Virus record (IMG/VR): IMGVR_UViG_2667527588_000007
Span: 1-41,084 of that record
Direction: 5' to 3' (one strand)
DNA from: a virus
Lineage: Duplodnaviria; Heunggongvirae; Uroviricota; Caudoviricetes
Length of the DNA stretch: 41,084 bases
Of this stretch, positions 6,879 to 41,084 are shown one piece after another. The notes under the pieces were generated by a model, which saw only the letters and a program-made list of their open reading frames with translations, was not told the origin of the DNA and searched no databases. Position 1 is the first letter of the stretch; every line of letters begins with the position of its first letter. The position numbers were made by a program, and so were the translations under genes.

Positions 6879-7056
6879 CATCCTGTGATAAAACCGTGAT
6901 TTCCTGATCCAGTTTTTTTAAGGAGTCTATTGTTTCCTGTCGATAAGACAGCACTTCACGAAGCTGGTTTATAGCTGCCAGCTTCTTTGTCATCCACTCA
7001 TAAATTTCCTCATCTGTGTAGCCAGGCGCGACGATTTTGGGTTCTGTTTTGTGCAT
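6850..7056 (-). CDS. hypothetical small protein (first gene of leftward operon)
   Basis: ATG at 7056 preceded by AGGAG RBS at 7-nt spacing; 68 aa; track start at 7071 is TTG; 3' end overlaps the 6444-6878 gene convergently by 29 nt. Confidence 0.55.
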   Translation of the reverse strand: MHKTEPKIVAPGYTDEEIYEWMTKKLAAINQLREVLSYRQETIDSLKKLDQEITVLSQDVTLDIVQTN

Positions 7057-7395: not shown

Positions 7396-8088
7396 TTAAT
7401 TATGTCTCTTAAGGGTTTGCGACTGACTGATTAAGACCTTTCCAAAGACCATGAATCGGTGTTCGTTTTCGCTAGTAATTCCCCATTCACGGTAAATCTG
7501 GTTATCAGAAATCACCAGCAGTTTGTCAGGAATCATTTGAAGTCTTTTAACGTATATTTTGTCATCAAAACCAAAGACATATATACCATCACCATCAAAC
7601 TGATTGATGCTGACATCAACGAAGATGAGATCTCCTGGCTCAATGGTTGGACACATACTGTCCCCACGAACGTTGATAACTTTGATGTGATTGGCTGGTC
7701 GTCCGCCGAACATTGATACAGCATTATCAGTTCTGTATTCGATGGCATGAATCACATCAATGACATCACCGCCCTGGATAAGGCCATTTCCCGCACTGGC
7801 ACTGATATCCAGCATTTCAATACGGAACACATCCTTCACCTGCGCAACATCCTCATTGTTACTGTTTTTATATACAGTATTACTTTTGTGGGCAGAGGTA
7901 AAGAGATCAGCAATATCAACACCTAAGCTCTTGGCAATATTACTCAGTGTTTGTTCGGTAAATTGTTTTTGCTTACCCGTTTCTAAGCGCGAGATGTTCG
8001 CCGCATCTACTCCTATCGCTTCAGCGAGATCGGCGATTTTCATGTTCTTCGCTTGGCGAAGTTGTCTGACTCGGTTTCCTATGTTCAT
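7396..8088 (-). CDS. cI: CI-type prophage repressor (XRE HTH + S24 LexA-like peptidase domain)
   Basis: N-terminal HTH (RVRQLRQAKNMKIADLAEAIGVDAANISRLETG), C-terminal S24 signature (GDSMCPTIEPGDLIFVD ... KRL); divergent from cro; no SD before ATG. Confidence 0.9.
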   Translation of the reverse strand: MNIGNRVRQLRQAKNMKIADLAEAIGVDAANISRLETGKQKQFTEQTLSNIAKSLGVDIADLFTSAHKSNTVYKNSNNEDVAQVKDVFRIEMLDISASAGNGLIQGGDVIDVIHAIEYRTDNAVSMFGGRPANHIKVINVRGDSMCPTIEPGDLIFVDVSINQFDGDGIYVFGFDDKIYVKRLQMIPDKLLVISDNQIYREWGITSENEHRFMVFGKVLISQSQTLKRHN

Positions 8089-8185
8089 GCGTTTATTACA
8101 TTTCTTTATTGCGTGATAAGCAAATCAACTTGCGCAAAATAATTGCGTGAAATAACATGCATAACGCGCAATATTTGGAGGGCGT
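8089..8185. promoter_or_regulatory. OR-like operator/promoter region between cI and cro
   Basis: TTGCGTGATAAGCAA (8109-8123) matches TTGC-N7-GCAA; candidate PR -35 TTGCGC (8130-8135) and -10 TAACAT (8153-8158); GGAGGG RBS for cro. Confidence 0.55.
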
Positions 8186-8446
8186 ATGCAATCACCATTA
8201 CGAAATGTGCGTAAGGCGCATGGTTTCACTTTGCAGCATGTTGCTGCGGGTGTTCAAGTCAATCCAGCGACGTTGAGTCGTATTGAGAGGCTGGAGCAGA
8301 TTCCATCTATCGAGCTTGCAGAACGTTTAGCCAATTTTTTTAAGGGTGAAGTCAGCGAAATGCAGATTCTTTATCCGGCACGTTTTCAATCTAGCCAAAA
8401 CCAGAATGGGTTTAAACCACAGGAACAGGAGGTGAACCGTGGGTAA
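8186..8446 (+). CDS. cro: Cro-like HTH regulator
   Basis: 86 aa; HTH QHVAAGVQVNPATLSRIER; divergent from cI; strong RBS. Confidence 0.8.
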   Translation: MQSPLRNVRKAHGFTLQHVAAGVQVNPATLSRIERLEQIPSIELAERLANFFKGEVSEMQILYPARFQSSQNQNGFKPQEQEVNRG

Positions 8447-8990
8447 GCATCACTGGAAAGTAGAAAAACAGCCTGAGTGGTACGTGAAAGCTGTCAGAAA
8501 AACTATCGCAGCGTTGCCGGGGGGGTACGCTGAAGCTGCTGACTGGCTGGATGTAACAGAGAACGCATTATTTAACCGCCTTCGTGCCGATGGCGATCAG
8601 ATTTTCCCGCTGGGATGGGCAATGATTTTGCAACGTGCTGGTGGAACTCACTTCATTGCTGACGCTGTGGCGCAGTCTGCAAATGGCGTCTTTGTGTCTC
8701 TTCCTGATGTCGAGGATGTGGACAACGCCGATATCAACCAACGCCTGCTGGAGGTCATTGAACAGATCGGCAGTTATTCAAAACAGATTCGTTCAGCAAT
8801 TGAAGACGGTGTAGTGGAACCGCATGAGAAGACAGCAATTAACGACGAGCTGTACCTCTCAATTTCGAAGCTGCAGGAGCATGCAGCACTGGTCTACAAA
8901 ATTTTTTGCATTTCAGAAAGTAATGACGCCCGCGAGTGTGCAGCTCCGGGCGCCGTGGCGTGTCGTGACTGTGGAGAAACTAACGCATGA
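8439..8990 (+). CDS. hypothetical early regulatory protein
   Basis: GTG start with AGGAGG RBS; 183 aa with C-terminal Cys cluster; occupies the position after cro. Confidence 0.5.
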
Positions 8991-14261: not shown

Positions 14262-15047
14262 ATGTATGTTTTTGAGTTAATCAAGCCAGGCAGTAATCTT
14301 AAGTTTGAAAACAGAGAGTTAGAATGGACGTTTAATAACTTATTATCCCATTTAGAAACTGCATTTTATGATGCTAATGTAGCATTAAATTTATTCGAAC
14401 AGGAAAGAACTAAGAATAACAGTAAATTCGATAATATTTCTCAGACATGGCAAGCTGATGTACAGAAACGACAAGCACTGGAAATGCTGGTTCGTAAAGA
14501 GTTTGGTTATCAACCTTATGAATATTCAGAACAGGTTTTTTCAGAGGTCGAGCTACGTCTAAAAAGAGAAAAATGGAATAACGGTGAATATCCGTTGGCT
14601 CATCAACACAGATTGATCTTCTTACATGCAAAATCATTTCTCTACGCTTTGGATGCTATTGATAAATTTTTAAAGGTAATTTCAAAAGAAAATGGCGCGC
14701 CAGAGAACATTAAAAAATTGCATGAACAGCTTTCTAAAGACTTTCCGGATTTAAGAAAGGTAAGGAATTCAGCTCAACACATGGAAGACAGAGTTCGTGG
14801 GCTTGGTGCAGAGAAAGAACCAAAGCCAATAAAACTCAAACCTGTAAATAATATTCATGTTGTTGCACCTCAGGGGGCATTGATGTTGAATAACTTATTC
14901 GGAACTAAATTTGGGTGCACTATGGCTGATGGCTATTATGGTGAAGTAGATATTTCGACAGAGTCTTTGGCAAAGTTGCAAAATTTAATCCAAAAAGTTT
15001 TTAATTCCTTCAGTTGGGAAGGACCAAAGCAACACCTTCCCCGATAA
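14262..15047 (+). CDS. hypothetical protein with HEPN-like RNxxxH motif (candidate abortive-infection/defence moron)
   Basis: 261 aa, AT-rich, all-helical composition; motif RNSAQH fits HEPN R-x4-H; own TATAAT -10 (14226-14231) and own terminator (15065-15097); located between Q and holin. Confidence 0.6.
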   Translation: MYVFELIKPGSNLKFENRELEWTFNNLLSHLETAFYDANVALNLFEQERTKNNSKFDNISQTWQADVQKRQALEMLVRKEFGYQPYEYSEQVFSEVELRLKREKWNNGEYPLAHQHRLIFLHAKSFLYALDAIDKFLKVISKENGAPENIKKLHEQLSKDFPDLRKVRNSAQHMEDRVRGLGAEKEPKPIKLKPVNNIHVVAPQGALMLNNLFGTKFGCTMADGYYGEVDISTESLAKLQNLIQKVFNSFSWEGPKQHLPR

Positions 15048-15064: not shown

Positions 15065-15097
15065 AAAGCCGCCAAATAATTGGCGGCTTTTTTATTT
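15065..15097 (+). terminator. strong intrinsic terminator after moron
   Basis: GCCGCC-AAATAATT-GGCGGC hairpin followed by TTTTTTATTT. Confidence 0.8.
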
Positions 15098-15136
15098 CAC
15101 AGTACCCGCAAATATCGCGAGGTGAGAGATGACGAA

Positions 15137-15463
15137 ATGCCTCATAACCCAAATACCTGGCTGGACTTGGTCCAGAGCTGGTGGCGTGGAGACACACCGC
15201 TGGGCGCAGTGATTATGTCGATTGTTATGGCTGGCTTGCGCATTGCATATTTTGGCGGTGGTGGGGGCTGGAAACGAAAAACACTCGAGATTTTGCTCTG
15301 TGGTGCTCTGACGCTGACTTTTGCATCCGCTCTTGAGTATGTCGGATGGCCTAAATCTCTTTCTGTTGCCATTGGTGGTGGCGTTGGGTTGATCGGTGTC
15401 GATGCTATTCGTGGGGCTGCAATGAGTGTAATCGGTAATAAGTTTGGTGGCTCTAAGGAGTAA
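15137..15463 (+). CDS. holin
   Basis: 108 aa from ATG at 15137 (GAGGTGAG RBS); hydrophobic Gly-rich TM segments; immediately upstream of endolysin; track start at 15080 lies inside the terminator hairpin. Confidence 0.75.
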   Translation: MPHNPNTWLDLVQSWWRGDTPLGAVIMSIVMAGLRIAYFGGGGGWKRKTLEILLCGALTLTFASALEYVGWPKSLSVAIGGGVGLIGVDAIRGAAMSVIGNKFGGSKE

Positions 15464-15466
15464 TTT

Positions 15467-15943
15467 ATGCAGGTACTAAATTCCCAGCGTAAAGCTTTCC
15501 TTGATATGGTGGCTTGGTCAGAAGGAACGGATAACGGACGACAACCGACACGTAACCACGGTTATGACGTTATTGTCGGTGGTGAACTCTTCACTGATTA
15601 CTCCGATCACCCTCGCAAACTTGTCACGCTAAACCCGAAACTCAAGTCAACAGCCGCCGGACGTTACCAGCTTCTTTCACGCTGGTGGGATGCTTACCGT
15701 AAACAGCTTGGCCTGAAAGATTTTTCTCCAGAAAGCCAGGACGCTGTAGCTCTGCAGCAGATTAAAGAGCGTGGCGCTTTACCGATGATTGACCGCGGCA
15801 ATATTCGTCAGGCAATCGACCGTTGCAGCAATATCTGGGCGTCGTTACCAGGTGCAGGTTACGGTCAGTATGAACATAAAATCGGCGACCTGATTGCCCG
15901 ATTTAAAGAGGCTGGTGGGGTAGTAAATGAAGCTGAGATATAA
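15467..15943 (+). CDS. R: endolysin, lambda R-type lytic transglycosylase
   Basis: 158 aa; near-colinear with lambda R as recalled (NSQRKAFLDMVAWSEGTDNGRQPTRNHGYDVIVGGELFTDYSDHPRK...); AGGAG RBS. Confidence 0.9.
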   Translation: MQVLNSQRKAFLDMVAWSEGTDNGRQPTRNHGYDVIVGGELFTDYSDHPRKLVTLNPKLKSTAAGRYQLLSRWWDAYRKQLGLKDFSPESQDAVALQQIKERGALPMIDRGNIRQAIDRCSNIWASLPGAGYGQYEHKIGDLIARFKEAGGVVNEAEI

Positions 15944-16319
15944 GCTGGTTATTGTTGCCTTCTTTGTTACCGTCATTGGTTCCTTCATCTGGTCTGTCGG
16001 GCATTACTACAGCAAATATCAGCACGAAAAGGAGCGTGCTGATGAGGCTGTACGAAATGCTGAATCGGCAACTGCCATTACCAATAACGTCCTGCAATCA
16101 ATACAAATCGTAAATACAGCACTGGAGGCTAGCCAGCATGCAAAACAACAAATCGCACTGGAGTCACAGAGAACCCAGGAAGATATCAAAGTGGCTGTTG
16201 CGAATGATGATTGCGCTTCACGTCCTGTGCCTGCTGCCGCTACTGACCGGTTGCGGAAGTACGCGGACAGTTTACGTGAGCACCCCAGTAGCACCACTGT
16301 CAACCACCCTAACTTCTGA
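15927..16319 (+). CDS. Rz: i-spanin Rz
   Basis: 130 aa; N-terminal TM helix then coiled-coil; overlaps endolysin stop; GGTGGGG RBS. Confidence 0.8.
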   Translation: MKLRYKLVIVAFFVTVIGSFIWSVGHYYSKYQHEKERADEAVRNAESATAITNNVLQSIQIVNTALEASQHAKQQIALESQRTQEDIKVAVANDDCASRPVPAAATDRLRKYADSLREHPSSTTVNHPNF

Positions 16320-16530: not shown

Positions 16531-16905
16531 TTAAAGACTATTTAGGAGACTCTGAATAATAGGCCATAAAGTTAATGTGTTTGCACCAGCTGAGTAAAAT
16601 CGCTCCATCAGTTGTAGAGGTGTTGATGACTGATTAAACTTGATATCATTTAAAATGTCGTATATTTCTTGTAGCTTCTCTGCACCAAGTTTATCGTTAA
16701 TTTCACTTAAGTTATTTTGTATGGCGATTTCTGCTTCTTTTATAAGCCGAACTGTTTCTGCTGAGTAATGAATATTGTTGGAAAGAAAAGTATTAGCTGA
16801 ATCAATAATTTCATAACCAACATCAGCACCAAATGATTTGTTTCCAATTATTTTGATGTTTTCGCATCCCTCAATGCGATAAGCAACGGTTTTCTTTTCA
16901 CTCAT
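16531..16905 (-). CDS. hypothetical protein (AT-rich minus-strand moron)
   Basis: 124-aa ORF antisense to the late operon, flanked by AT-rich intergenic DNA; weak AGGT RBS. Confidence 0.55.
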   Translation of the reverse strand: MSEKKTVAYRIEGCENIKIIGNKSFGADVGYEIIDSANTFLSNNIHYSAETVRLIKEAEIAIQNNLSEINDKLGAEKLQEIYDILNDIKFNQSSTPLQLMERFYSAGANTLTLWPIIQSLLNSL

Positions 16906-29385: not shown

Positions 29386-29916
29386 ATGAAAGGCTATATC
29401 ACAGCAAGTGTAATTCTTGGAGCAGCGGCTATTTTTTCATCTCTCATAATCTCTGGCAACATCTCCTTTAAAGATGAACATATTATTCAGTTATCTGGAG
29501 GAGCCATAAAACTTGGTGATGTTTATAAAGAAAATAAATTGATAAGTGCAAAGATTATTTTTCCAGATAATCAGGGTGAACAGATTCTTGTTGTCGACGG
29601 CAATCCTGAAAACTTTAAGGAGGATTTTCAGGAGAAATTAAATAAAGTAATAAAAACTTTAAATGCGTCAAAGAAAAAAGATGAAGAGAAAGTTAGCCTG
29701 GATAATTTAAGTGTTATTGAAGAGTCTAAACTAGAGCTCGTTTCTGCGGTGCGTTACTCTGCTCAGTATGTTCCTATGTTTACTCTGACGCTGGACAAAA
29801 AAGAAATTACCATGCCTAAAAATACGGTAATATTTCCATTTGCCAGCGATGAAACAGCTAAGTATTTAAATGAACAACAGCAAAAGTATAAAGATTCGTT
29901 GTTTCTGACTCGCTAA
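29386..29916 (+). CDS. hypothetical membrane-anchored protein (AT-rich moron inside tail cluster)
   Basis: 176 aa; N-terminal hydrophobic anchor (ITASVILGAAAIFSSLIISG); Lys/Glu-rich; own promoter and terminator. Confidence 0.6.
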   Translation: MKGYITASVILGAAAIFSSLIISGNISFKDEHIIQLSGGAIKLGDVYKENKLISAKIIFPDNQGEQILVVDGNPENFKEDFQEKLNKVIKTLNASKKKDEEKVSLDNLSVIEESKLELVSAVRYSAQYVPMFTLTLDKKEITMPKNTVIFPFASDETAKYLNEQQQKYKDSLFLTR

Positions 29917-37517: not shown

Positions 37518-38513
37518 ATGAAAGGGATATATTATGAGAATACTCGAACCTCTATACCGGGGTGGATATCAAACCTTCATGAAACTCAAAGGTTTGGTTA
37601 CGCTTATGAAACAAGTACTCACTTTGTTCATTTATATGGTAAAGCTGAACCTTTTAATGTCATATCAGTTGGCCTTACCGCAATACAAGGTAAAAGTGGG
37701 ACTCTAAATGATTGGGTTATAAATACATTTGGAGCAACTAACATCCAAACATTACAAAATGATATCGGACATGTTGTTGAAGGTGTCTGGAGACCATCTT
37801 TATATTATAGCGATGACATTCAAGGTGCGTTGTTAGTTGATCCGTTCGAGAAAATGTCGTCAGGACAAGCTCTGCGCAATCTTATTAATAAACTCGATGA
37901 ATTATTTTTGTACATTGAGCCAAGCATCACAGGTCTGAAAGCATATAGCCATAAATGCAGGGAGCTATTAATTTTGGCTTGTACAGAAGTTGAGAATCAG
38001 TGGGTGTCACTGATAAAAAAAACAAACCTAAATAATGTAGGGGCTAGATATACAACTAGGGACTATGTACGGCTTGCAGATAAATGTTTTTTAAAAGAAT
38101 ACAAGGTGAATTTTAAAAATTACTCAGGCTTAAGAGATTTCACACCATTTTTATCTTGGGTTCCGACTGCCTCTACTGGCTCTTTACCTTGGTACGATGC
38201 TTATAATGGAACTAAGCATGATAGGGAAGCAGGTTTTAATCTCGCATCATTGGAGAATGTGATGGATGCCTTATCTGCTTGTATAGTATTGTATTGTGTT
38301 AAATATGGACCTTATGATTTGGTGTCTGGTGGGGATCTGCTTTCAGGAACGTTTAACGAGCATTTTTCTCTTAGTTTCATAAATAGTGATAAAAGTAGCT
38401 ATTACGTTCCCGAATTGAATTTTAACGCAAACGCAATAACAGACTTGTGTGTGATTGACTGTTATAGAGAAAAACTCAACAAAGCATGGGTTACAGAACC
38501 TCTTGTTTTATAG
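37518..38513 (+). CDS. hypothetical protein (AT-rich accessory gene at invertase-proximal hotspot)
   Basis: 331 aa, GAGGTG RBS, AT-rich with Asn/Tyr-rich composition; occupies DNA that replaced the invertase 3' portion. Confidence 0.6.
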   Translation: MKGIYYENTRTSIPGWISNLHETQRFGYAYETSTHFVHLYGKAEPFNVISVGLTAIQGKSGTLNDWVINTFGATNIQTLQNDIGHVVEGVWRPSLYYSDDIQGALLVDPFEKMSSGQALRNLINKLDELFLYIEPSITGLKAYSHKCRELLILACTEVENQWVSLIKKTNLNNVGARYTTRDYVRLADKCFLKEYKVNFKNYSGLRDFTPFLSWVPTASTGSLPWYDAYNGTKHDREAGFNLASLENVMDALSACIVLYCVKYGPYDLVSGGDLLSGTFNEHFSLSFINSDKSSYYVPELNFNANAITDLCVIDCYREKLNKAWVTEPLVL

Positions 38514-39174
38514 GTAGTATTAATTCAGCACCTTGATTTTTTGTATTTCCCACGGCACGCGTCACGGCGTGCCAGATAAACGTGTCGGCAGACGCTGTAC
38601 CCTTAGCAACAATCTCCTCCACCACTCTACCTACGACATTCTGCCGTATCCACTCACGAGCTGCTTCCGGTGATAGCACCAGCGGCCGGCGATCATGAAT
38701 ATCTACCAGCCCTTTATCCGCAGCAGTAGTTACAATCAGGAACCCCTCAGCTTCATCGCCACGTTCAAATGGTGTGCTGCCAATAGCGGCCATGAATATA
38801 GGCTGGCCGTCAGCCCTGCGAATGAAGTAGGGCTGTTTTATAATGCCTTCGCGCTTCCATTCGAACCAACCATCAGCAAAGCAAATTGCACGTCCATGCA
38901 ACCAGAGAGGTTTGAACATTCGGCTGGTGGCCGCAGTTTCTGAGCGTGCGTTAATCAGCGGAGGTTTATTCCACCATCCGGGAGCGAATCCCCAGATAAC
39001 AGGATCGAGGTGCAACTGTTCGTCGCGTTCGCTCAAAAGCAGAACTTTGGTACCGGGTGCAACGTTGAATCGTCCAATTGGTTCTGGAACGTATGGGATG
39101 TCACGCTCAGCTTCTTCTGATAGGAGGGCAAGATAGTCTTCACGCGTCATTGATTGGGCGAAACGTCCGCACAT
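38491..39174 (-). CDS. SOS-response-associated peptidase (SRAP / YedK-like abasic-site processing protein)
   Basis: N-terminal MCGRFAQ with catalytic Cys2; 227 aa; GGAGG RBS. Confidence 0.8.
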   Translation of the reverse strand: MCGRFAQSMTREDYLALLSEEAERDIPYVPEPIGRFNVAPGTKVLLLSERDEQLHLDPVIWGFAPGWWNKPPLINARSETAATSRMFKPLWLHGRAICFADGWFEWKREGIIKQPYFIRRADGQPIFMAAIGSTPFERGDEAEGFLIVTTAADKGLVDIHDRRPLVLSPEAAREWIRQNVVGRVVEEIVAKGTASADTFIWHAVTRAVGNTKNQGAELILPIKQEVL

Positions 39175-39217: not shown

Positions 39218-39242
39218 AAAAAAGCCCGCATAAGCGGGCTTT
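39218..39242 (-). terminator. intrinsic terminator (minus-strand orientation)
   Basis: GCCCGC-ATAA-GCGGGC hairpin with A6 on plus strand (U-run on minus-strand transcript). Confidence 0.6.
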
Positions 39243-39370
39243 CATGTCACTCGGGAGCCGCGGCTCCTTTACGTATCCTTTTTTGTCTCCTCACCGTCTA
39301 GTCGGTGTCCTGCTGAGACTGCTAACTTCCTGTTTTTGTTAGTGCTGTCCTGGCACTGTCCAATCATGAT

Positions 39371-39398
39371 TGGTGGAGCTGGCGGGAGTTGAACCCGC
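39371..39398 (-). other. 28-nt fragment identical to the 3' end of tmRNA (ssrA); probable att-site remnant
   Basis: Minus strand reads GCGGGTTCAACTCCCGCCAGCTCCACCA, the T-arm and acceptor 3' end of E. coli tmRNA as recalled; upstream sequence does not continue the tmRNA. Confidence 0.55.
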
Positions 39399-39689
39399 AG
39401 ACACGTCGTATGCAAGAACTTGCTGCGGCTGGATGGTGGACTTTCGATAGTGCGAGTATTGAATGATGTCCAGCCGTTATTGATTTTACGTATTTTTTGC
39501 ATGAAAAGATTAGCACCTCATCCCACCGCTCCTCCATGATTTTACACCACTGTCTCTAGAGCTCTGTGTGCCAGAAGCGGAAGTTCATACCTCTAAGTGG
39601 ATATTTTGTTAAAATATGCCATCAAAATCCTTGCTACCTCATGGTTGACAGTGATAAAAGTTGCACAAATTACTGAGAGAGAAATTACA

Positions 39690-40127
39690 ATGAGTGGAGA
39701 TACCTCTGAGTTTCCTAATAAACTTCCCAGAAAGCCAATAGGTTGGCGTGAAGAATATAGTGATTTTACAGGTAGTATTATATTCTATATGATATTCCCG
39801 TTGCTTCCATTACTTTTTGAGTCAATTAACACAGGAACTCACCCTTCAATACAATCATTAACAATTACTGCATCAATATACTCTTTTTCCATCGGTGTAT
39901 CTTCTCGAGATAAAGCTATTTTTTGCTTAGGGATTTTTTGTGGTTTCATTCTCGCTTATCTTTACGGTAAAGTTAGTGAGCCAAAAGTTATTATATATAC
40001 CTGGTACTATGTAGTTACGGTGATACTACTGGCTGTAATATTTATATTTCATCTTCTCGAACGATTTAATAAACACGTGGTAGAATGTGAACCTGTTTTC
40101 TCCTTTAAGTTTACGAGAGGTATGTAA
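39690..40127 (+). CDS. hypothetical multi-pass membrane protein
   Basis: ATG at 39690 preceded by purine-rich GAGAGAGA and a TTGACA -35-like motif (39645-39650); AT-rich; several hydrophobic segments; track start at 39597 is GTG. Confidence 0.5.
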   Translation: MSGDTSEFPNKLPRKPIGWREEYSDFTGSIIFYMIFPLLPLLFESINTGTHPSIQSLTITASIYSFSIGVSSRDKAIFCLGIFCGFILAYLYGKVSEPKVIIYTWYYVVTVILLAVIFIFHLLERFNKHVVECEPVFSFKFTRGM

Positions 40128-40594
40128 TGGAGGATATTATATTTATGTATGCTGGGTTGATAGTGTCTTCTTTAGCGGCAATTGTAGGCTTAGCTACATC
40201 TATCATGCATACTCGTAAAAAAGTTAAAGCTAATGAAGAGCTTGCAACTGAAATGGCAAAGAGCTTTAGTGAGCTTGAATCTATCAATAAAAGCATAGGG
40301 GATTTGGAAGCGACAATTAAAAGGATAGATGAAGATGAATTAAAGTTAAGAATAGCAATTGAATCTTTAAAGGAAATGACTTCTGATGAAAAAAAAGAAT
40401 CTAGGGATATGTTGAAAAACATCGTTAATGATGAGGTGTTCATTAAAGTTCTTCTCGAAAGCTATAAAAAACTGGATACCCAGTCAAAGAAGGAGATTTA
40501 TTTGACTTTTTCCAAGTCGACAGATAGAGGCCTTTATCGATATATAAAAAGAATAGCTTCATCAGTACTCGATAACTTAATGGTTAAAATATAA
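40127..40594 (+). CDS. hypothetical membrane-anchored coiled-coil protein
   Basis: TAATG coupling to upstream gene; GAGAGG RBS; N-terminal TM helix followed by Glu/Lys-rich helical region; AT-rich. Confidence 0.55.
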   Translation: MEDIIFMYAGLIVSSLAAIVGLATSIMHTRKKVKANEELATEMAKSFSELESINKSIGDLEATIKRIDEDELKLRIAIESLKEMTSDEKKESRDMLKNIVNDEVFIKVLLESYKKLDTQSKKEIYLTFSKSTDRGLYRYIKRIASSVLDNLMVKI

Positions 40595-40949
40595 ATGCGT
40601 GCGCGCGAGATACAATTTCTCGCGCATTGTGTAACCGGCGACAAAACCCTGTTATCATTATAGCGACCCGTTTAGATGGGCCATTTGTGCCCCAACAGCT
40701 TCTGGGTATAGATTTCCTCGGCCCTGTATAGATACTTTGCTAAAGAGTATTTTAATGGTATTTTGCTTACGTACTATTCTTCTAACGAATGTCTGCCTTA
40801 TCCTGTGAGCTGCCTTCGCTCAGCATTGGCCTGTTTCTCGTTGATTTATATACTGCGACACTAACATAGGCGGATATGTCCGCTCCTCGCTCATAACAGA
40901 CATTCACTACAGTTATGGCAGAAAGGTATGCATGCTGGGTGGGGAAAGT

Positions 40950-41084
40950 ATGAAGGAAAAGAAAACTGCTGCGCTGTTTGTCGTCACGTTTATCTTCATT
41001 GGCTATGCAAGTCATAATACAAGGTGGGACAAAACTGAGACACATAAGGCCTCACAATGGCTTGCAAGGCTTTACATGTTTTGA
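40950..41084 (+). CDS. small hydrophobic peptide ORF ending exactly at window end
   Basis: MKEKKTAALFVVTFIFIGYASHNTRWDKTETHKASQWLARLYMF (44 aa) with GGGGAAAG upstream; stop TGA is the last three bases of the window. Confidence 0.3.
   Translation: MKEKKTAALFVVTFIFIGYASHNTRWDKTETHKASQWLARLYMF

Follow-up and report, generated by a model that had tools for sequence, protein, structure and literature searches.

Near the right end of the 41,084-nucleotide window analyzed here (virus record IMGVR_UViG_2667527588_000007, Caudoviricetes, positions 1 to 41,084; unless a locus is named, all coordinates below are those of this whole stretch), two overlapping genes, designated A and B, encode small membrane proteins carried by an E. 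coli prophage. The two genes constitute a real, ancient, strictly paired and horizontally mobile membrane module. Based on their genomic context and architecture, A and B, encoded on a moron cassette, putatively form an inner-membrane complex of two subunits that protects the lysogen from other phages through abortive infection; we give this reading a probability of roughly 0.4. The features under discussion are as follows.

39690-40127, + strand: gene A, an open reading frame (ORF) of 145 amino acids for an inner-membrane protein with four helices (ATG at 39690, stop TAA at 40125-40127)
40127-40594, + strand: gene B, an ORF of 155 amino acids for a single-pass membrane protein (ATG at 40127, stop at 40592-40594)
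39564-40906, + strand: mobile cassette of 1.34 kb, consisting of ~125 bp of upstream sequence, A, B and ~310 bp of downstream sequence

The original prediction, made from the sequence alone, described two coupled ORFs with a TAATG overlap, and this is the arrangement that we found: the junction reads ...ggtATGTAATGgagg..., and ATGTAATGG (TAATG) joins the two genes with an overlap of one base.

The A and B proteins

The RefSeq start of A is a GTG at 39597, giving a protein of 176 amino acids. We prefer the ATG at 39690 because the phrog_22626 profile and the family alignment both begin there and because the Pectobacterium and Logan homologues are called at 145 amino acids. An AlphaFold2 model of A (predicted local distance difference test, or pLDDT, 92.7; predicted template modeling score, pTM, 0.80) contains helices at residues 21-48, 54-71, 75-95 and 104-131, consistent with the multi-pass membrane protein that had been proposed. 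Since the A family carries net positive charge at the N-terminus, in the loop between helices 2 and 3 and at the C-terminus, both termini are predicted to lie inside the cell (N-in/C-in), and domain fusions at the termini agree independently with this orientation. Periplasmic exposure would be confined to two loops of 5-8 residues.

An exhaustive HMMER search for the A family yielded 375 clusters at E <= 1e-3, 70 of them at E <= 1e-10, with lengths typically between 115 and 215 amino acids; 91 sequences were used for the family alignment and for the library scans described below. Within helix 1, P37, P40 and E44 are invariant or near-invariant. Conservation elsewhere is seen at Y64, at S71-S72 in the short cytoplasmic loop between helices 2 and 3 (S72 being conserved family-wide), at G93, and in a motif at the cytoplasmic end of helix 4, H121-x2-E124-R125-x-N127-x-H129. 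The A protein of the window has P37, P40, E44, Y64, S72, G93, H121, E124, R125 and H129, all present. Ratios of nonsynonymous to synonymous substitution (dN/dS) of 0.07-0.14 indicate that A is under purifying selection. A falls into phrog_22626 of PHROGs v4 (E 1.7e-26, profile positions 6-130 of 133), as does the Serratia homologue; this group has no annotated function, covers A only and does not record the partner B.

Some members of the family carry additional domains. An N-terminal RNase H1 hybrid-binding domain (HBD; PF01693, 44-54 bits with a cut-off of 21) was present on A in three of 150 listed family representatives (P0018, P0026 and P0042). The HBD-fused forms retain the B partner (L045 3044-3682 and L046 138-773), and in L045 GmrSD adjoins the fused A. 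Two representatives, P0116 and P0081, have a charged helical tail fused to the C-terminus of A.

The B protein consists of an acidic N-terminal tip (MED), a membrane helix at residues 4-22 and a basic juxtamembrane segment (RKKVKANE), after which come a variable helical linker and a C-terminal module; the latter is conserved and in the window reads LD-x3-K-x-I ... S-x2-G-x2-RY-x2-RI. The acidic tip and the single membrane helix are common to B-type proteins, as are a basic stretch, in many cases with K-A-E at its end, a linker whose length varies and a C-terminal module of roughly L-D-x3-K-x2-I-x3-L-x-Q-x-S-x2-G-R-x2-Y-x2-K-L. The B of the window matched its Serratia counterpart by BLASTP at E 4e-7, and a B profile constructed without enterobacterial sequences scored it at 33.8 bits versus 3.0 +/- 3.8 for shuffled sequences, with none of 5000 shuffles reaching the true score. 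B is likewise under purifying selection (dN/dS 0.26-0.32); it had no PHROG match.

Among 16 B sequences, the residues before the helix included no Lys or Arg and 21 Asp or Glu, while the 15 residues after it contained 75 Lys or Arg. Because the Lys and Arg residues all follow the helix, B is predicted to be tip-out and tail-in (N-out/C-in), with a tip of 2-15 residues outside the membrane and the whole tail in the cytoplasm. The earlier description of B as one N-terminal transmembrane helix followed by a coiled coil holds for the helix; the coiled coil we regard as plausible at most, because the structure model, in which the charged region after the helix is all helical, is of low confidence (pLDDT 56). 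By predicted topology, all of the conserved non-membrane parts of A and B face the cytoplasm.

Pairing and distribution

Readable downstream DNA was available for 17 distinct settings of family members; in 16 of them a B-type gene either overlaps A or begins no more than 19 nt beyond its end. These settings include E. coli, Pectobacterium, a P2-like phage, Acinetobacter (two), Shewanella, Serratia, Vibrio and metagenome contigs, together with metagenome-assembled genomes (MAGs) of Stahlbacteria, Dehalococcoidia, Verrucomicrobia, Prochloron and a gammaproteobacterium. The sole exception is a Saprospiraceae MAG (L029 2846-3586), in which the gene after A encodes 246 amino acids with a helix in the middle of the protein (98-116) and a long N-terminal helical region; this partner may be a domain-swapped variant of B. 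A-family loci were also recovered from Photobacterium and Saprospiraceae. Distant A-B homologues co-occur in at least eight phyla, and a fused A+B profile used to search a set of 5.8 billion proteins recovered at least 15 proteins.

Two findings had been named as ones that would tell against a phage-associated pair, namely that the proteins are housekeeping membrane proteins and that the two genes fail to co-occur. Neither is so. The pair is found in six of 5426 complete E. coli genomes (~0.1%), always within a thrW-integrated prophage and always on mobile DNA, and it co-occurs both in the four settings of the cassette described below and in the distant homologues.

Many of the loci are variable slots or lie beside genes of defense systems. 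Sister E. coli prophages keep the flanks and have different cargo in the A/B slot, and that cargo adjoins either type II restriction-modification genes with a GIY-YIG gene or an LmuB-like SMC ATPase. In Serratia prophages the pair lies between icd/attL and int. The distant pair in a P2-like phage occupies the G-FI slot, in which P2 carries Z/fun. Neighbors include a type III restriction subunit in Stahlbacteria, AbiU (E 1e-195) and PDC-M04A in Pectobacterium, and in Acinetobacter a Phd antitoxin-like gene (Pfam E 1.4e-4, under the gathering score) followed by a small ORF that is RelE/ParE-like by eye.

The mobile cassette

Alignment of the window with fetched loci by blastn, together with junction alignments, showed that the cassette is 86-92% identical across four unrelated settings, with homology breaking at 39564, 39568 or 39597 on the left and at 40886-40906 on the right. 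The first setting is the thrW prophage of E. coli. The second is a Pectobacterium chromosomal islet, where the cassette separates AbiU/AIPR and DUF3800/PDC-M04A genes from a MORN-repeat gene. The third is a CP4-57-like island in genomes labeled Citrobacter or Enterobacter, containing CbtA/CbeA, RadC, an anti-restriction gene and YfjT, and flanked by Mrr and McrA-like HNH genes. The fourth is a Klebsiella contig of ~112 kb with Dam, RNase H and DUF4942 genes. Over positions 7564-8465, the Klebsiella-type (L006) and Citrobacter-type (L007) loci differ at no coding position of A or B, yet they reside in wholly different elements, implying a very recent transfer between genera. Plasmid carriage was rejected, as the plasmid database PLSDB gave no match by DNA or by protein.

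Three non-coding features of the cassette are listed here.

39561-39581, + strand: left boundary palindrome, GCT-CTGTGTGCCAGA-AGCGGA, truncated in the window
40877-40902, + strand: right boundary palindrome, degenerate in the window (TGTCCGCT-N10-AACAGACA) and perfect in Klebsiella (TGTCCGCT-N10-AGCGGACA)
40627-40876: conserved non-coding tail of the cassette, ~250 bp at roughly 89% identity, with indels of 10, 1, 1 and 1 nt between copies

The intact palindrome, TCCGCT-N10-AGCGGA (22-26 bp), is present at both ends in Klebsiella (L006 7434-7455 and 8762-8783) and at the left end in Citrobacter (L007 7434-7455). The palindrome recurs, with an identical loop, ~170 bp 5' of the distant A homologue of the P2-like phage (L014 4805-4830), whose pair is 36% identical. 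By chance, such a palindrome is expected 0.02 times per 41 kb; its role may be that of a terminator, an operator or a recombination site. The tail is not a conserved ORF, given its indels of 10, 1, 1 and 1 nt, and had no Rfam match; it might represent the remains of a gene, or else an element with a regulatory or RNA role.

Composition and expression signals

The region is AT-rich, as had been noted: GC content is 0.36 and 0.34 across 39501-40500, versus 0.52-0.61 in most of the structural genes. A TTGACA sequence proposed as a -35-like element is present at 39645-39650. It is not conserved, since every other copy of the cassette reads GTGGACA there; no fitting -10 element was found, and promoter-like matches in the region were at chance level (5 found versus 5.6 expected). 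Two other features flank the coding sequences.

39597-39689, + strand: conserved upstream leader defined by the upstream alignment, containing the block GTTAAAATATGCCATCAAAA at 39607-39626, common to the P2-like version, and a Shine-Dalgarno-like run, GAGAGAGA
40600-40626, + strand: GC-rich hairpin TGCGCGCGAGA-tacaat-TTCTCGCGCA, directly 3' of B and kept in all copies of the cassette

Upstream of the Serratia-type pairs in icd prophages (L032 ~6880-6920 and L036 ~100-140), a strong terminator is followed by three directly repeated copies of GTTATCAAAA at a spacing of ~11 bp, to which the GTTAAAATATGCCATCAAAA block of the window is related. These blocks look like a candidate regulator-binding site. 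The hairpin downstream of B is a possible terminator; it has no T-run and was not called by a terminator scan.

Comparison with known families and systems

Searches of Pfam, NCBIfam, PADLOC and PHROG with A, B and the 91 members of the A family gave phrog_22626 (for A only) and noise, with nothing consistent; in particular, the 91 members had no consistent match in PADLOC. Sequence-profile searches of the PDB identified no related solved structure. The public names of A and B proteins are all "hypothetical protein", and the literature, searched by accession number and by architecture, yielded no account of the pair. The statement in the original prediction that neither protein belongs to a recognizable family agrees with the Pfam, NCBIfam, PADLOC and PDB searches.

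One parallel in organization is with RexA and RexB of phage lambda. Like these, A and B form a two-gene prophage module in which one partner is a four-helix inner-membrane protein of ~145 amino acids (RexB has 144) and the other is thought to be a sensor facing the cytoplasm, and the model of depolarization and abortive infection is the one we have adopted for A and B. They differ in that B is membrane-anchored whereas RexA is a soluble protein of 279 amino acids, in that the gene order is opposite to that of lambda, where rexA precedes rexB, and in that Rex lies in the immunity region while A and B occupy moron sites near att or near tail-fiber genes. A relationship by descent was rejected: hhalign gave a probability of 1% for the A family with RexB and 0.1% for the B family with RexA, and no Rex was found among the Pfam hits. 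It is conceivable, at somewhat less than even odds, that A and B work like RexAB without being related to it.

A second comparison is with the defense systems of P2 and P4 hotspots that use small transmembrane effectors, for example a hydrolase with a transmembrane protein or a reverse transcriptase (RT)-nitrilase with a transmembrane protein (Rousset et al. 2022, PMC9122126). As in those systems, A and B are small operons with membrane proteins presumed to kill or arrest the infected cell, found in variable moron slots of temperate phages, and the distant pair sits in such a slot of a P2-like phage, although the G-FI slot differs from the P2 slot analyzed in that study. The hotspot systems join a membrane protein to an enzyme or sensor domain (TIR, HAD hydrolase or reverse transcriptase), whereas A and B are both small membrane proteins with no enzymatic domain.

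Matches of the pair to lysis proteins were also considered. A lysis-cassette role was rejected, as the Rz-like PHROG and TIGR03495 matches reached only E 0.006-0.2 and there is no embedded lipoprotein ORF. A role for B as an i-spanin was rejected as well, since its topology is opposite to that of an i-spanin (N-in/C-out with a periplasmic coiled coil) and the prophage has lysis genes of its own.

15080-16319: lysis cassette of the prophage (holin, endolysin and Rz-like spanin)

Possible function of the module

The earlier suggestion that the pair resembles an exclusion or abortive-infection module is partly supported, by the moron and hotspot slots and defense neighbors in which it is found, by its architecture and by the nucleic-acid-binding fusion. 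Abortive infection is favored because a cytoplasm-facing architecture with an occasional nucleic-acid-binding fusion points to a membrane effector gated by a sensor. We propose that A would be the effector, probably an oligomeric ion-conducting or membrane-perturbing module, and that its conserved cytoplasmic mouth (S71-S72 and H121/E124/R125/N127/H129) would be the site of control. B would act as regulator or sensor, with its basic juxtamembrane segment level with the mouth of A and with its variable helical linker and conserved C-terminal module facing the cytoplasm. A would be released or activated by a signal of infection in the cytoplasm, in the form of a phage protein or of a nucleic-acid intermediate, and would then collapse the membrane potential so that phage development stops. 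An A-B complex as a physical entity, any pore or ion-conducting activity, the signal that triggers it and protection against phages are all inferred.

Several observations weigh against abortive infection. A had no hits in PADLOC-DB v2.0.0, including its candidate families, and B had only coiled-coil noise at E >= 0.005; fold searches returned only generic helical bundles. With the model of B unreliable at a pLDDT of 56, any interface between A and B is putative. The HBD fusion, found in just three of the 150 listed representatives, is not on the A of the window. Ordinary metabolic genes are the neighbors at several distant loci, for example L041 of Vibrio, L043, and L028, the last of which adjoins an ORF that is RecF-like by eye only. 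Proximity to defense genes says little about the role of a two-gene cassette able to insert at any site, and exclusion, addiction or a neutral passenger status would be just as compatible with a small membrane pair on a mobile element.

The first of these alternatives is superinfection exclusion at entry, in which A and B in the inner membrane of the lysogen would block genome injection, through the channel or a host factor used by tape-measure or ejection proteins, without death of the cell. HK97 gp15, T4 Imm and P22 SieA are single-gene superinfection-exclusion membrane proteins that act at DNA entry. Like those proteins, which protect the lysogen, A and B are small, integral to the inner membrane and encoded at classic moron positions, beside attP/int and after tail-fiber genes, and their carriers are mainly temperate phages. 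They differ in being an obligate pair with hardly any periplasmic exposure (loops of 5-8 residues in A and a tip of 2-15 in B) and with their conserved polar motifs, as well as the tail of B, in the cytoplasm. In addition, an RNA:DNA-hybrid-binding domain fused to A fits sensing after entry, the family extends to non-phage islands and to phyla whose envelopes are very dissimilar, and no PHROG with an exclusion annotation matched A or B. Exclusion at entry is therefore unlikely, if still worth considering.

The module might instead be of the addiction or toxin-antitoxin type, one membrane protein being a toxic pore that the other neutralizes, and serve to stabilize the mobile element with no dedicated anti-phage role. 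A compact overlapping operon, strict co-occurrence and evident recent lateral transfer would suit such a module, as would its presence on prophages and islands near toxin-antitoxin genes (CbtA/CbeA in Citrobacter and the Phd-like gene in Acinetobacter). Yet both partners look stable and are comparable in size, and neither a labile antitoxin nor a DNA-binding autoregulator nor an antisense RNA was apparent. A family that is conserved from Proteobacteria to Chloroflexi and Cyanobacteria, and to which sensor-like parts have been added variably, is more typical of defense modules. We judge addiction improbable as the sole function, bearing in mind that it does not exclude abortive infection, since many abortive-infection systems are toxin-antitoxin systems.

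Equally improbable in our estimation is an accessory membrane function outside phage conflict, such as stress or ion homeostasis, lysis timing or modulation of the envelope to the benefit of the lysogen. The lack of a match in defense libraries and the metabolic neighbors at some loci would be explained in this way; the His/Glu/Arg/His cluster of A could bind a metal or a proton, and the conserved A/T-rich upstream repeats (three copies of GTTATCAAAA in Serratia and in L036) suggest regulated expression. Against such a function, the distribution is extremely patchy (0.1% of E. coli) and always in mobile or variable DNA, the same slots hold restriction-modification or other defense cargo in sister prophages, the prophage already has a complete lysis cassette, and the HBD fusion has no obvious role in ion homeostasis.

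A miniature ion-driven motor of the MotAB/ExbBD/ZorAB type, suggested by a superficial resemblance in the order and overlap of the genes and in the number of helices (a four-helix and a single-helix subunit) and by Zorya, in which stator-like pairs serve defense, is largely refuted and highly improbable, because none of the 91 A-family members matches MotA_ExbB or any other stator family in Pfam, A, at less than half the size of MotA, has no counterpart of the large cytoplasmic loop of that protein, and B has the opposite topology (N-out/C-in), no periplasmic domain and no conserved Asp in its membrane helix, only the tip outside the membrane being acidic. The stator-like reading and options not considered here share the small remainder of probability.

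The prophage and its right-end cargo

The prophage lies in an E. coli chromosome and is integrated at thrW, the tRNA-Thr(CGU) gene at 1369-1444; the last 1.9-2.7 kb of the window are 99.6-99.7% identical to strain TB06052. Genes for head, tail, baseplate and an invertible tail fiber extend to ~37.1 kb, and cargo of low GC content occupies the right end of the prophage. In both of the closest genomes, the attR direct repeat of the tRNA-Thr 3' end lies ~87 bp past the end of the window, which makes the A/B pair the final operon of the prophage; in the circular form of the phage the pair would sit just across attP from int. The other features of the prophage that bear on its cargo are listed here.

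1459-2622: integrase, adjoining the tRNA-Thr gene
14262-15047: phrog_5322, without annotated function, low-GC, just before the holin
16531-16905, - strand: orphan ORF of 124 amino acids, low-GC, after the spanin
29386-29916: phrog_5485, without annotated function, low-GC, between the tape-measure and DNA-circularization genes
37518-38513, + strand: AT-rich protein of 331 amino acids, phrog_19461 (E 5e-139), without annotated function
38491-39174, - strand: YedK/SRAP-type peptidase
39371-39475, - strand: 3'-end fragment of tmRNA (ssrA), Rfam tmRNA E 6.4e-5, under the gathering score

The phrog_19461 and YedK/SRAP-type genes are convergent, with an overlap of 23 bp, and constitute variable cargo; other thrW prophages have restriction-modification genes or an LmuB-like ATPase in their place. 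The three low-GC insertions amid core genes (phrog_5322, the orphan ORF and phrog_5485; GC 0.32-0.36) are likely to be additional morons. Between the cassette and attR there is an ORF of 50 amino acids (40932-41084) with a hydrophobic N-terminal segment, and over its final 200 bp (40876-41084) the window shares 89% identity with the int-proximal region of phage 21 and lambda-like phages.

The tmRNA 3'-end fragment that had been reported near the pair was recovered by the Rfam tmRNA model. Its mention as a neighbor of A and B is nevertheless misleading, as it is a relic of the prophage backbone that is unrelated to them. The homologous segment in phage LLS is annotated "tmRNA pseudogene / attP", in the order invertase, cargo, attP, integrase, and the region containing the fragment in the window (39218-39475) holds the same position as the functional attP of that phage. 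By this homology, the fragment is a relic ssrA-type attP of a prophage backbone that now uses thrW. A relic of this kind inside a thrW-integrated prophage implies a past swap of the integration module. The fragment lies ~90 bp outside the conserved cassette, is not next to the cassette in Pectobacterium, Citrobacter or Klebsiella, and is no part of the A/B module.

Implications

The broadest form of the proposal is that A and B represent a phylum-spanning abortive-infection system of just two small membrane proteins: a four-helix effector with a Ser/His/Glu/Arg/His mouth gated by a tail-in partner, an HBD that in some lineages senses intermediates of phage replication, and an enterobacterial cassette bounded by TCCGCT-N10-AGCGGA, perhaps a recombination or regulatory site. 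That all of these parts hold together is doubtful. If the module is a defense system, it would be among the smallest known, with ~300 residues in total and no enzyme domain, and would comprise two unannotated protein families distributed from Enterobacteria to Chloroflexi and Cyanobacteria. It would offer a tractable model of a minimal membrane effector that is kept silent and then triggered, and the HBD fusions point to RNA:DNA hybrids or double-stranded RNA as a candidate trigger. The cassette also illustrates the swapping of cargo among a thrW prophage, P2-like phages, icd-integrating prophages and chromosomal defense islets, and profiles of A and B could extend the tools used for defense annotation. 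Were the module to have no role in defense, it would nonetheless be an ancient and strictly paired membrane module overlooked by current databases.

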